A DNA stretch of 64,000 nucleotides from Octopus vulgaris. Its lineage: Eukaryota. The notes below the pieces were generated by a model. That model ran no database searches. It worked only from the letters and a program-made list of their open reading frames with translations, and had not been told where the DNA came from. The DNA is taken from the NCBI GenBank assembly GCA_951406725.2, contig OX597818.1:33418001-33482000 (forward strand), in the 5' to 3' direction. Shown piece by piece: positions 11,456-64,000 of this stretch (positions within the stretch are counted from its first letter, which is position 1; every line of letters starts with the position of its first letter). The position numbers and the translations under genes were made by a program.

Positions 11456-11490
11456 CTTTCTGCTGAAGAGCGTAGGCTCGAAATGTAAAA
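11456..11490 (+). ncRNA. Minimal HHR-like motif (A6C core, decayed) in a PLE pseudo-LTR-like repeat (~11405-11582)
   Basis: cttt CTGCTGA a GAGC gtag GCTC GAAA tg TA aaa(t). Stem II is 4 bp; stem III is probably CpG-decayed from acgt. Confidence 0.5.
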
Positions 11491-13734
11491 TATTTTTCTC
11501 ACTTCTCGAGCGTTAAACTAATACATCTGTTTGTTGCTTACACACCCGTCTTCATCTTTTGTTATTTTTGTAAATGCTCACTATATATATATATATATAT
11601 ATATATAGTAAATTAAACAATTTTTTGGGATGGGGAATTAGATGGTTGGATCTTTAGGGATACGTTTGTTACCACTGTCACCATCATTTCTACCAATGTA
11701 CATGCACATCATCTCTTATAATTGACAAATGTATACGACGAAAATAAGTATGAATTGCTAATGCTATATAAATATTGTATTTTACTCAGCAAAATACTGG
11801 TAATAATGTCTTTTCAAAATGTATGAGTACTTCCGCCGAGGTCAGCTTTTTCTGTTATCCTTTCGGGGTCGATAAATTAAGCACCAGTTGCGTACTGGGG
11901 TCGATCTAATCGACTGGTCCCTCCCCACAAAATTTGGGGCCTTGTGCCTAGAGTAGAAAAGAATATCTATGAGTACAATTTGTGGCTAAAGGCATGTAGT
12001 CTTCTTCGTATTTTCGTGTAGATACTAGCAAAATTAAATTCCGATGTGTTTGAAATGAGGAGAGAGAGTGAGAAAGCGTCACTCACATTTTATTGACGAT
12101 AAATACGTTTGTTATATTGATTTCAAATTTTGGCACAAAACCAGAAATTTTGTGTAAGAAGGTTAGTTGAATACATCGACCCCACTACTTGGCTGATACT
12201 TATTTTATCGACCCCAAAATGGTTGAGGGTAAAGTTGACCCCAGTGAAATTTGAACTCAGAATGTACAGAAGGACGAACTACCGTAGATTACTTTGGCCG
12301 GTGTGTAAACGATTCTTCTGCCTTGCCACCTTATGTTCCTGCTATATTGTTTCCATTTTTATAGAATGTTTGCTGAAAAAGTCTTTGGATCTCTTTTTGT
12401 ATTAGATAAAATAAGTAACAGGGAACTTAAAACAACTGCTTTCTTCACAAAATGTTGTGATCATATACAAAATTCAATAATCAATATTTATTCATTCTTT
12501 CGCTCTAATATGAATAATTCTATTTGAAGATTTCATATAAGTAACTGCGTGAAAAAGCAGTGAATTTGTCACAACCGAAATTCAAAACTCACCGAGATGC
12601 ATAATATCTAGTAAAATGAAAGAGGAACTTCTTTAAGGGTTAATCATTAGTCATGTTTGATACATAGAAAGCTCTACTGAGTAGTTACAGTACAGAAATA
12701 TGCAGATTTACTTCTTTCGTTCCATTCATTAAAACACCACAACGTATATTAATTAAGTAAATGACTAGGAATAATGATGATATACAAGCTGAAAATTTAG
12801 ATGACGTTGCTAGCCAAAATGCATACTAAGCAAGAGAGATGACCTTATTTACAAATTGAACAGAAAATATATATGAAGATTTATACAGGTTCCATATCTA
12901 GAAAATATTATTTTTAACAGATATTTCTCATTGTAGAGACTGACAACAAGTGATTTAATTAACGTTTCAAATGCTATGAGCAAACATTGACCGCGACACT
13001 GTCATACGGATGTCGTACTTCTTTAGTCGGCAAGCATACGTCGCCAGAATTATCCTTTACTTCATACAAATGTAAGATGGAATTGTGATTATCTGTATAA
13101 GATGATCCTACACACATTCTTCTCTCTATCAATGTGTGTGTTCTCCTTGGGAGGAGACATTATCGGGCAGCAGAATATGAAGGATATCATTTCACATCTG
13201 TTATTTGAACTCTTTTTTCAAATCTGGAATATACATTAGAAAAGCAATCTGCATATTAACATGTCTGAATTTAAAACCGCAGACATGTTTTTTATTAACT
13301 AGCTAAACATATATATCTAAAGGAAACCAGGTCATGGGATTAATGAAATCTGCGAAAGTATATATTTGTATATATACAGTGCATGTCCACTATATTTTGC
13401 ATTGTCTATATAATCAAAAACGCTCAATCAATTGATGTTATTGATGTTATGGCTACAGTTTAACTGCATTAATTTCTCTGATAAAAATCGCCTTTTCGCC
13501 AGCAATTTGCCACGGAAGATGTGGATGCAGTCAAATACGAGCCGGCTAAAGAGTCATTAAGAATATCTGTTATAATATTTAAACGAACTAGAGCTCTCAC
13601 AATTAAGCACCTTCGTCTAAGGATTTCTATCAGGTCTTGAACGAAGTAGTATCTAAAACTGGTTTGCTTAAAGTCGAATATACCCAATACAGATTGTTTT
13701 TTCTTTTTTATTAAAACAGAAGGTAAGAGTTTGT

Positions 13735-14120
13735 TTCGCGAATACTAGTGGAATACCCCAATAAAAAATAACATCAATTCGGTGCAAACATAATAAATCT
13801 GATATTGTTGTATATGACATGGAACAAAAGTCATGCACTGTTATAGAGGTCAGCTGTCCAACGGATGTGAATGTACAATCAAAGGTCCGGTGAAAAGAAA
13901 CTGTCTATGGCTAGTTAATGCAGAACTCACAGCCTTTGTACTGACTATCAAATTTTCATAGTGGGTGAATTAGGTTATGTACCAATTAATTCGGACAATA
14001 TCAAAGAAACACTTGGTTTCACAGAAAAAAGAGCAAAAGAAACTGACGCGGATTCTCCAAATCCAATCTATTAGTGGCAGAATAAAGATTTGTAAGACGC
14101 TCCAGAAGTTATCCATGTGA
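13735..14120 (+). mobile_element. R4/Dong-like LINE restriction-like endonuclease domain remnant
   Basis: Manual translation gives ...CKHNKSDIVVYDMEQKSCTVIEVSCPTDVNVQSK...Y, a PD-(D/E)xK RLE motif, with stops and frameshifts, ending LQIQSISGRIKICKTLQKLSM*. Confidence 0.75.
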
Positions 14121-15741
14121 GATTCTTATGTGAATAGCTGCACACACTTGGGTGTATGCATCGACAGTACAGCCAAGACACCAGCTCAATCACATATTTA
14201 CAAACACTGGGAACTCTTTTAACTCAAAAAGTCTTATTGCTTTGTTAACAGCCGGCTTGAACTTTCTCAAAAACTTAAATTCAGTTCAAAGAAAAGTCAT
14301 TTATTCATACGTGCGTACATCCATACATGTGTGTGTATTCGTTCGTAGGCACGTTGCGAATGCAGACAGCTTGTCATTATATTTATTCATCGGGGGCAAT
14401 AAAATACATCGCATATTGAAGTCGATTTACTCAACGCATTACAAATATGGATGTTTGGGTGTGAGTCTGTATCAATGGAAACCATCAATATTATTTAGTA
14501 AAATGATATTGTGTTTCGGGCTATTTCTTTAATCATGTACTTCGGTGCCCCTGTTAGAATTAAAATATGTGTAACCTAATAGCAACTGCTCACAAATGCA
14601 CCTTCTTTGCGGTAAATGATCAAAAAGAGAAATGGAGATATTTCGTCTAGTTGCCATTCCATTGGCCACATTGCCCCTGGCATTCTCCTTAAAAAGAAAG
14701 TCAAATTAATTGATGTAATCTTCAATTTGTTGGGTTGGCGCCAGTTAATTTGCTAACTATAATCCAGCCAAGTCTACCTGCATTCATACAGAGCAGTTAT
14801 TGCACATATATATATACATATATATATATATATATATATATATATATATATATATATATATATATTCATATTTATAAATCAAGTGTGAATTTAAATTCGC
14901 CGACATATGTGCATAAATACCATTGTGTGTATGAGCATGTATATTTGCGTGTCTGTATATTTTGTCTCTCCGGCATTCTGGAGATCCCTGGATTTGAATT
15001 ACATTAAGTACATTTGAGTGAGCGAATGTGAGGAAGAAGAAAAGAAGACTGTGAGAGAGAAGGTATTCTCATTGAAACTTCGTCTATTTTACTTTAAATC
15101 TATAAGAAAATCGTTCTTTATTTCGTTCATACTATTTAAGTTTAAGTCATACTTTGATGTTATCAGATATTATCTGACGAATAGGCCGCCAAATATCGGC
15201 ATACGCTTATTGAACACGACAATCTAAGATATTCATACTCTAATATCCAAACTATATATCAGTTATATTGATATCAATATTAATAGCATTAATACATTAA
15301 GAATTATTATTTCTAAATTTTAACAGTTATAATTATTATTTCTAAAATAAATGGTATTCCAGAAATTATGAGGGTATGTTGCAGGCATTATATTTACCCG
15401 ATTATCATATATGGATTTTATTTTGTAAAACACTGAGGGCTGAGAGGGAAAATCAAGATTGCTCCAGCTGGAAAACATTTCATCTCACGCAATTGAGATA
15501 CCTGTAAAATAAGTATGAGTTTTGCAGCTTTGTCAGTCTATATCCCTATACATCTGATGTCTCGTCTATATTTATGCCAATCATTAATAGCTTGAGTAAC
15601 ATGTCATGGTAGAAACAAAGGGCATTCGCTGTAATATGATCCTCCTACATTAATCTGTCCTTATATCAATCACTCGAAGCTCTTGTGGTTTAACCACGGA
15701 GTCCAGTTACAAAATACATGTTCATTAAACATAAAAACGAT

Positions 15742-62400: not shown

Positions 62401-63110
62401 GAGAGAGACAGAGAGAGAGAGAGAGACAGACAGACAGACAGACAGACATACAATGAGTGAGAGGGAGAGCCTAACGGCAATTTAAATCGAACTTCTATCT
62501 GCTTTGTCGATCTGAAATGAATGATTTACTTACATAGGAAATAAAGCATACGGCATGACAGCTGAATATTCGTTTTAACAGAGAGAATTAAATTTAATGA
62601 ATGTAAAATCATTAAATGTAAGATTAACAACAATATCAGAGACATCCGTAGATAAGGAGAATAGTATTAACATAATACAGAGTATATAAGTCAGAATTAT
62701 TTGCTCTGAAGTGTCAACTACAATATAAGTTTGATTATCACTAAGTTTTCGTATATTAAATTGTAAATACTTTACATATTTGCAATCGGTCGGCGAATAA
62801 AATTCAACACACACAAAGCACAAACACATACACACACAAACAATATACATAAAATATACATGCATACATGTATACGCACACGAACAGTCACGTATGTGTG
62901 TGCGTATGTGTACATGTATTTATCTTAATTCACCGCGAAAATTTCGTAAAATTAATCAGTAAAATGTCATAAATTTAAACGTATCGAATTGTTATCAATC
63001 AAATATATTCCCAAGCAATATTGAAAAGTATGGTTCCATTTAAGCATTTGCACGCGTCAATAAAAGTTTCTGGACATATTTATGTGTATGTATATATGTA
63101 TATACATATG

Positions 63111-63413
63111 TGGAGGCAGTTTCGATTCCCAGACCGGGCGTTGTGAGTGTTTATTGAGCAAAAACACTTAAAGATCCACGAAGATCTGGCAGGGGGTTGT
63201 GGCGAACCCTGCTGTATTCTTTCACCACGAATTTCTCTCACTCTTTCTTCCTGTTTCTGTTGTATCTGTATTTCACAGTGGTCAGTCTTGTAACGCTGCA
63301 CCTCTCCGAGAACTACGTATCTGTGGAATGCTCAGCACGTCAATTTCAAGAGCAGGCTGTTCTGTTGATTGGATTAACTGGAACCCTCGTCGTCGTAACT
63401 GACGGAGAACCGT
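63111..63413 (+). mobile_element. SINE family C with internal head deletion
   Basis: tggaggca joined to gtttcgattcccagaccgggcgttgtgagtgtttattgagc... Confidence 0.8.
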
Positions 63414-63436
63414 AATATATATATAATTATATATAT

Positions 63437-64000
63437 ATAACATAAGGGACTAAAGCCATCTGAATATGGCTAGGGACAGGGCAGGGTGGTGGGGGTGTTA
63501 CTGTTGCATTTAGCCCCAGGCGAACATCGACGTCACCAGAAAGGCTAGACACCGTCACGGTGTCCTTATCCTGCAAAGGGAGGTAATTCCCCGATGAAGC
63601 GGAAACCACACACGGATCATGGTTTCAAGGTGTATTGCCTATCGTCGGCGTGTGGTAGGCTTCCGCTTCCTCGACGAATTCTCACTCTGCAGGATATTCA
63701 TATATAGATTTTCAAGCAAAATACATTTGCTGATTTCGAAAATCTGTTCGAAAGCAATAATAATTCTCTAAAAGAGATATAGACAGTAACTGCTCGATAA
63801 CATAAGGGACTAAAGCCATCTGAATATGGCTAGGGACAGGGCAGGGTGGTGGGGGTGTTACTGTTGCATTTAGCCCCAGGCGAACATCGACGTCACCAGA
63901 AAGGCTAGACACCGTCACGGTGTCCTTATCCTGCAAAGGGAGGTAATTCCCCGATGAAGCGGAAACCACACACGGACCATGGTTTCAAGGTGTATTGCCT
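63437..64000. mobile_element. 360-bp head-to-tail repeat (retrozyme/pseudo-LTR-like), runs off the window
   Basis: cataagggac at 63441 and 63801; the copies are almost identical over ~200 bp; starts after (TA)n. Confidence 0.9.
63605..63656 (-). ncRNA. Minimal HHR, U4C variant
   Basis: cacacg CCGACGA t agg caataca cct t GAAA ccatg(a) TC cgtgtg. The second copy (63965-64000, truncated) has the perfect palindrome ACCATGGT and a GUC triplet. Confidence 0.75.

Follow-up and report, generated by a model that had tools for sequence, protein, structure and literature searches.

Type I hammerhead motifs with a matched 3:8 core pair near the 3′ ends of Penelope-like and other repeat families of Octopus vulgaris

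In a 64,000-nucleotide stretch of the Octopus vulgaris genome (GenBank assembly GCA_951406725.2, contig OX597818.1, positions 33,418,001 to 33,482,000; hereafter the window), 20 copies of the hammerhead ribozyme motif, belonging to 12 dispersed repeat families, were found by homology. These motifs are real hammerhead-shaped sequences and not chance matches. They are type I hammerheads lying near the 3′ ends of the repeats; five of the 12 families were shown to be Penelope-like elements, and two are likely non-coding retrozyme passengers of such elements. Core positions 3 and 8 remain matched, quite probably since the source copies must still cut RNA, perhaps as dimers and with the help of the element protein, in order to spread. 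The genome is 2.8 Gb in 227 contigs, and the window is 35% GC and rich in microsatellites. An initial annotation had rightly called the window dense in hammerheads, although its figure of about 10 loci in 64 kb was too low.

All 15 loci cited in that annotation were parsed, and the genome was searched with each of the 12 window motifs. Each search gave 76 to 2168 first-look candidates, of which 40 were scored and 25-30 loci were kept; the relatives counted for a family are its best matches and so are biased toward the window copy. Rows that were gapped in the core or whose 5′ part was not homologous were removed (0-3 per family); the family majority at 3:8 was then paired in 12 of 12 families, with nine C:G (both C4 families and the Y6 family included), two U:A, and one G:C. 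The claim that the two positions vary together is thereby borne out. The permutation p value for such pairing given these letters is 0.0015, for loci chosen by the earlier reader. The majorities of all 12 families also have G12-A13-A14, A15.1:U16.1, H17, and the type I order, and depart from the box N3-U4-G5-A6-N7-N8-A9 only by C4 in two families and a pyrimidine (Y) at position 6 in one. Three stems surround the core, and stem III is palindromic or 1-2 bp long. The variants are family norms and not private mutations: G3:C8 is found in 36/40 relatives, U3:A8 in 25/25 and 30/30, and U4C in 25/27 and 12/12. It had also been stated that stems I to III and GAAA are kept, which does not hold for every copy; U16.1 is lost in the 32181 and 37538 copies, stem I is damaged at 21997 and 11456, the stem III palindrome is damaged at 63605, and G12 is lost at 36791.

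Is the pairing also seen where no reader chose the loci? A strict type I descriptor, in which positions 3, 4, 6, 7, and 8 were free and the cut-off score was at least 11, was run on the window and on 80 evenly chosen 10-kb stretches of the genome (800 kb); a first loose scan (56 matches) had been discarded as mostly noise. In the window there were six matches, each with a Watson-Crick 3:8 pair, whereas 200 block-wise dinucleotide shuffles gave a mean of 0.21 and a maximum of 2. In the 800-kb sample there were 36 matches, 35 of them paired (26 C:G, 7 U:A, 2 G:C, and 1 U:U), against a mean of 2.9 and a maximum of 6 in 20 shuffles and a single match in the reversed sequence. Equal frequency in shuffled sequence, named in the initial annotation as a refuting outcome, was thus not seen. 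Only 26% of the null matches were paired at 3:8, compared with 97% in the genome. When all scores were pooled, 47/61 were paired; pairing falls below score 11, as expected of noise. Thus, the 3:8 covariation does not result from reader selection. Homology searches gave 83 true matches among 86 in the sample and none in the reversed sequence, although the library used was partly made from the 800-kb sample itself and is incomplete. Clustering over 1.87 Mb gave 64 clusters, many of which are single well-formed motifs. A second G3:C8 family (L378) was considered and rejected; the match lies inside an open reading frame (ORF) resembling that of a long interspersed nuclear element (LINE), and its two relatives lack the motif, so that one of the two G:C sample matches and three of the 86 homology matches are false. 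Two single well-formed U3:A8 motifs (L401:2073 and L209:712, both +) are unlike the window families and perhaps represent further U3:A8 families.

The carrier had been left unnamed in the initial annotation. It was found that an ORF with a reverse transcriptase (RT) domain and, at its C-terminus, a GIY-YIG domain lies upstream of the hammerhead on the same strand in the 29954, 40366, 32711, 11456, and 37538 families, the last at one locus. These five families are thus tied to Penelope-like elements. In the 40366 family, 25/30 loci have an RT and GIY-YIG ORF of their own (two bait loci counted; the Pfam matches are weak), which in most copies checked ends about 50-230 nt upstream. The corresponding count for the 32711 family is 6/25 loci (two bait loci counted). 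In the 11456 lineage, the hammerhead stands behind a GIY-YIG ORF at three loci (L065, L378, L257), and in the 37538 family, RT and GIY-YIG remains lie directly upstream of it at L274. At L103, the link to the ORF is broken by other inserts. A CR1-like LINE was rejected as the carrier of the 11456 hammerhead, as an inverted stub lies between the two in L043. The best named homologue of a Penelope-like element protein from this genome is labelled as Octopus vulgaris (57% identity). The element may be Neptune-like, as judged from a cysteine linker motif. Inverted partners were found at six window insertions, in which the stubs are truncated and head-to-head, and insertions lie beside (TA)n. Inverted truncated partners, two 3′ ends, and (TA)n targets fit the Penelope pattern described earlier (10.1101/2021.04.23.441226; PMC11167929).

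Two families consist of non-coding tandem units with one type I hammerhead each, as in retrozymes. The 63605 family has 360-nt units, in tandem in 20/26 sources (overlapping loci counted), while the 23133 family has 365-nt units, which are in tandem in 3/29 sources and also occur inverted. They are likely to be non-coding retrozyme passengers of Penelope-like elements. The predicted circular folds of these units have 62-64% of their bases paired. Further retrozyme-like families were observed in the random sample at L346 (353-359 nt, canonical C3:G8, 78% like the 63605 unit) and at L334 (362 nt) and L396, which both have U3:A8 and resemble the 23133 unit at 82-86%. Outside the hammerhead, U3:A8 and C3:G8 units show a likeness that is no more than suggestive (aligned identity about 51%; local score 34, against a null mean of 22 and a maximum of 36 in 500), so that no claim is made here for covariation inside a single retrozyme clade.

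The G3:C8 family was followed through a copy in the random sample, which has a GIY-YIG frame 1 kb upstream. A search with that GIY-YIG protein gave 150 scored matches, 29 of which were 100% identical over 178 amino acids (the query itself counted). All 12 loci picked by protein have a G3:C8 hammerhead 956-1002 nt past the stop codon, two pairs of these loci being inverted neighbours. One copy has an open frame of 1025 codons in which RT motifs were recognised by eye and GIY-YIG scored above the Pfam cut-off (E 1.8e-5); this copy is 5′-truncated, and its first 26 codons or so come from an inverted junction. A second hammerhead in a direct pseudo long terminal repeat (LTR) was sought at L419 and L420, where only the 3′ hammerhead was found; L419 is 5′-truncated with an inversion. 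The family has two alternative 3′ ends about 55 nt apart. Among protein relatives that are followed by a hammerhead, the nearest is L274 (34-39% identity), which is C3:G8, and a C3:G8 sister of the family sought by the 3′ end was not found. A Protein Data Bank search with the long ORF gave 0 matches, and no RNA dataset was listed with the element. In contigs of four runs from three organisms, no other letter reached 5% in the box or at G12, where depth drops near the box and contigs lose rare variants. A diverged relative of the element end was observed at L421:560-790, in which both strands of stem I are changed in register; further copies of it were not found. Long CA/TA-rich microsatellite tracts lie in the 3′ untranslated region of the element, in the roughly 1 kb between the stop codon and the hammerhead (L406-L420), so that the element would seed such repeats on insertion.

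Selection on the core was assessed by comparing alleles within families; the core columns did not include CpG columns, positions 7 and 17, or, in the 11456 family, position 6. Alleles common to at least three copies, taken as marks of source lineages, numbered two over 119 core columns and 65 over 520 others (p = 1e-4). Private changes were nearly as common in the core (43/3330 cells, 1.3%) as outside it (255/14284, 1.8%; p = 0.05). Thus, selection keeps the core intact in spreading copies and not in those that stay where they are. The initial annotation had held that these motifs were under selection for catalysis; selection stands for the lineages that spread, and catalysis would be the selected property as judged from published work (PMC4209133; PMC11167929). 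The hammerhead lies 100-200 nt from the 3′ end of the element. Reverse transcription may start 100-200 nt downstream of the hammerhead, so that even short insertions would carry the motif, which could account for the motif density without any host function. The inserted single copies would then decay. Two copies in one transcript may pair via the palindromic stem III and be cut after position 17, as published for other species, and such cleavage by dimers is presumably aided by the element protein (PMC4209133; PMC11167929). In a lizard Penelope hammerhead, the single mutants of C3 and G8 are dead, whereas the double mutant C3G/G8C partly restores cleavage (PMC11167929).

Several points weigh against the explanation as a whole, Penelope-like carriers and RNA cutting together. 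For the 17824, 21997, 31352, 32181, and 36979 families, 17-21 copies each were examined with 1.5-kb flanks, and no ORF on the same strand adjoined the hammerhead, the 31352 family having a lone weak same-strand match 985 nt off. These five share the stub anatomy of the linked families, and a Penelope-type origin is likely for families beyond the five tied here. When G3:C8 stubs were sought by the downstream end, most still had the whole hammerhead, meaning that the RNA they were copied from was uncut there. Published minimal hammerheads are slow cutters, also in dimeric form (PMC4209133), and in Anolis insertion in vitro did not need cleavage, nor did any RNA reads end at the cut site (PMC11167929). 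Successful lineages in the octopus carry A6C, U4C, or an insertion ahead of position 3, changes that lower activity in vitro (PMC3088659; PMC7151607). Unconstrained cofolding gave intermolecular stem III pairing in three of four motifs, the G3:C8 motif being the fourth.

Some of these points could be explained if source elements retain the hammerhead fold because it serves as a structural signal for protein binding, dimerisation, or template handling, with slow or incidental cutting. I regard this as unlikely, though it deserves to be taken seriously. It agrees with the spread of lineages with Y6, C4, or a pre-position-3 insertion to hundreds or thousands of candidates, with the reduced in vitro cleavage of such cores and the dispensability of cleavage in vitro (PMC11167929), and with stubs that stem from uncut RNA. 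It differs from the cleavage explanation only in the property selected. What speaks for cleavage is that the 3:8 pair, G12, A15.1:U16.1, and a non-G base at 17 are held across unrelated families. The 3:8 pair is said to belong to the active conformation in the structure of Martick and Scott of 2006, and the rescue data likewise make it part of that conformation (PMC11167929).

It is very improbable that many of the dispersed copies now serve the host as working ribozymes, with selection acting on them in place. Private changes are slightly rarer in the core, and many copies look intact, from 14/26 up to 30/30 per family, as co-option would have it; yet the private deficit is small beside the deficit of shared alleles, and the scored copies are best matches to the query. 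Several window copies also lack essential bases, and most copies are single or head-to-head and so have no same-strand partner. As for chance matches in an AT-rich, hairpin-rich genome, with covariation due to reader selection, weak matches do arise (eight in the reversed control), one sample G3:C8 match lies inside a LINE-like ORF, and two cited loci were misparsed. Against this, there were 36 matches compared with 2.9, 97% paired compared with 26%, no homology match in the reversed sequence, and a fixed position behind Penelope-like ORFs. The scans and the ORF link refute chance, to which I give practically no credence. Returning to cleavage in source elements, a further-reaching view is offered tentatively, at somewhat less than even confidence: a young, probably still mobile Penelope-like element with a natural G3:C8 core, beside a long-lived Y6 lineage and a young extra-base lineage, and dozens of families holding about 10^5 motifs at several times published densities, would form a natural mutagenesis screen showing the core under purifying selection in spreading lineages though cleavage looked dispensable in vitro.

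The Y6 lineage is that of the 11456 copy. Position 6 is U in 25/33 of its relatives, C in 8/33, and A in none. At L373, L382, L390, and L421, U or C was observed at position 6, and all four bases occur at position 7 across subfamilies. A related family, with a stem II like that of this lineage, has A6 but C4; the two together make up 20/86 of the homology matches in the random sample. The 40366 family (L121-L150) is young, with copies 97-100% identical, and has an extra U, U3:A8, and a 2-bp stem II in 30/30 relatives. Its motif is the least canonical in the window and, with stem II of only 2 bp, folds no better than shuffles.

The box assigned in the initial annotation was present at its place in 13 of the 15 loci; those at 37012 and 36791 were misread. 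TTGATCA at 37012, taken there for a decayed exception to 3:8 pairing, is simply what the family normally has in the 3′ arm of its long stem II. Alignments place the real box, a canonical CUGAUGA, at 36979-36985 in a hammerhead at 36975..37054 (+). As these letters sit in stem II of a canonical C3:G8 family, the exception falls away; the short parse at 37012 folds worse than 186/200 shuffles, and the 36979 family is C3:G8 in 27/32 relatives, with four C:A and one G:G. The motif at 36791, said to be probably U3:A8, is a boxless, inverted, 5′-truncated copy of the same family (36791..36861, −) that has lost G12.

C3:G8 was confirmed at 17824 (−), 21997 (+), 31352 (+), 32181 (−), and 37538 (+). 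The type I hammerhead at 17823..17872 has the box CUGAAGA at 17866-17860, and that at 21996..22056 has CUGAGGA at 22001-22007, a palindromic stem III, and a stem I whose first pair is lost. A decayed inverted second copy of the 21997 family, which had been missed, was recognised by homology at 21175..21245 (−). The intact type I hammerhead at 31352..31399 has CUGAUGA at 31356-31362. The hammerhead at 32181..32240 has CUGACGA, and its U16.1 has become G where 22/22 relatives have U; that at 37538..37628 has a long stem II, CUGAUGA, and U16.1 changed to C in this copy.

U3:A8 was likewise confirmed at 22533 (−), 22898 (−), 23133 (+), and 40366 (+). The first three belong to the retrozyme-like insertion at 22314..23427, made of two 365-nt tandem units on the minus strand and one inverted unit on the plus strand, in which there is no ORF of 110 amino acids or more. 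All three have the box UUGAUAA: 22533..22575 (−; single stem I mismatch), 22899..22939 (−), and 23133..23175 (+; box at 23139-23145, 6-bp stem I, 4-bp stem II). The atypical hammerhead at 40366..40404 (+) matches its family norm exactly: the box UUGAAAA is at 40373-40379, stem I is separated from position 3 by an extra U, and stem II is 2 bp long. An inverted identical copy at 40119..40157 (−) had not been recorded.

The remaining variants also stood, namely G3:C8 at 29954 (+), U4C at 32711 (−) and 63605 (−), and C6 at 11456 (+). A head-to-head stub of the G3:C8 element occupies 29811..30162, with the long 3′ end on the plus strand and the short 3′ end on the minus strand. It contains an intact type I hammerhead at 29954..30004 (+), with the box GUGAACA at 29961-29967, a 7-bp stem I, an extra G followed by a 5-bp stem II, and a palindromic stem III, and a newly recognised inverted G3:C8 copy with A6G at 29898..29948 (−). 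The intact hammerhead at 32710..32772 (−) has CCGAAGA at 32766-32760, and an inverted 5′-truncated copy of its family, without a box, was found by homology at 32798..32857 (+). The hammerhead at 63609..63654 (−), with CCGACGA and a U10.1-U11.1 mismatch, is in the last unit of a 4.7 × 360-nt tandem array, whose next hammerhead is cut by the window edge (63960..64000, −). The type I minimal hammerhead at 11456..11491 (+) has CUGCUGA at 11460-11466, an extra A ahead of a 4-bp stem II, and decayed stems I and III.

How many such motifs does the genome hold? The strict scan gave about 33 matches above background in 800 kb, or 41 per Mb, from which roughly 1.2 × 10^5 intact-looking motifs are extrapolated genome-wide. 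It is blind to long-looped, bulged, 2-bp-stem, and decayed motifs (7 window matches, compared with the 20 copies by homology); homology gave about 100 per Mb, or roughly 3 × 10^5 genome-wide. As the matches are clumped (7/36 within one array), these totals are order-of-magnitude figures only. The window, with 94 strict matches per Mb, has about twice the sample mean. Published counts correspond to some 4-15 per Mb. The octopus genome looks several-fold denser, although the descriptors differ. Published counts of minimal motifs are about 2,000 + 1,300 in Schistosoma, 4,000 in coelacanth, and 9,000 in Xenopus (PMC4209133); others are more than 6,000 in 16 families for a coral, about 5,000 for a mussel, and up to 120,000 for axolotl. 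A squid genome paper gives 235 hammerhead loci, and the main text of a 2026 Octopus repeat paper does not mention hammerheads.

The large, under-annotated reservoir that had been proposed is thus partly confirmed. At its gathering score, Rfam gave 0 hammerhead matches in the window and misses all 20 copies; there was no hammerhead at gathering among the 150 listed of 210 window matches ranked by E-value, and none in 22400-23450 at E ≤ 10. The reservoir consists mostly of transposon stubs, because inserted copies decay almost neutrally, and it is not mainly non-canonical, since 26/36 strict matches are C:G at 3:8. Elsewhere in the window, a 224-amino-acid open frame at 26564-27238 (+) resembles a mariner-type transposase (Pfam PF01359, E 1.4e-13), and a 219-nt near-perfect inverted repeat around a (TA)n run at 39523-39960 gave spurious microRNA matches under the gathering score.

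The density and diversity had been thought to be what may be new, but massive, highly varied genome-wide hammerhead families, U3-A8 included, were in print in 2014 (PMC4209133). The metazoan Penelope-like minimal hammerheads of that study (Cervera and de la Peña) resemble those in the octopus in several ways: the families are many and varied, with mostly single truncated copies; copies occur in opposite-strand pairs at a distance of 100-700 bp; a further base follows A9; stem III is palindromic; and there is U3-A8 covariation, with about 1,300 matches in Schistosoma. The boxes UUGAUAA (23133) and UUGAAAA (40366) appear letter for letter in its figure S3. In contrast, G3:C8, C4, and pyrimidines at position 6 are all absent from the 56 motifs in that figure, and the counts of the study are 2,000-9,000 per genome, compared with about 10^5 extrapolated here using another descriptor with stem II up to 75 nt. 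Non-LTR retrozymes (Cervera and de la Peña 2020, PMC7229834; Li et al. 2026, 10.64898/2026.07.22.740005) include tandem repeats in a mussel whose non-coding units are 350-390 nt long and each contain a type I hammerhead, as here, and an axolotl family with a U-U mismatch at the base of stem II, like 63605; they reach up to 120,000 copies in axolotl, and a Penelope origin has been proposed. The octopus tandem families differ in carrying U3:A8 (365 nt) and U4C (360 nt) cores and are known here from DNA. Natural core variants described by Perreault et al. (2011, PMC3088659) and Naghdi et al. (2020, PMC7151607) include U3-A8, A6C, U4C (in a viroid), a stem II of 2 bp, U10.1-U11.1, and insertions 2a/2b ahead of position 3; they are rare and mostly microbial, while here they are the norm of high-copy animal families. 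A natural G3-C8 or U6 was not found in the passages searched in these two papers, figure 5 of Perreault et al. being outside the search.

Thus, work from 2011 and 2014 had already described the class, how abundant and varied it is within a genome, the additional base behind A9, and the U3:A8 covariation. U4C and A6C have been seen in nature before, as have insertions ahead of position 3 and a stem II of 2 bp. In 2017, Lünse, Weinberg, and Breaker reportedly described about 150,000 examples of hammerheads from Penelope-like elements that have a small stem III and cleave as dimers. In the literature covered, with that 2017 paper outside the search, only engineered variants of the G3:C8 core and no lineage with a pyrimidine at position 6 throughout were found. 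A natural G3:C8 core as the norm of a young element and a lineage with a pyrimidine at 6 throughout may therefore be new, though the 2017 paper may list either. The in vivo role of Penelope hammerheads has been called a mystery (PMC7761336). That 3:8 changes are matched and that shared alleles are depleted in the core is evidence from evolution for a role of active-site geometry in spreading, and the young G3:C8 element, with near-identical copies, offers a direct test system for the natural swap. The closest known system is Poseidon of Anolis (Frangieh et al. 2024, PMC11167929), a pseudo-LTR hammerhead element with two RT start sites giving a tail, like the two G3:C8 ends here. In Poseidon, G3:C8 is engineered and partly rescues protein-assisted cleavage, whereas in the octopus element it is natural.

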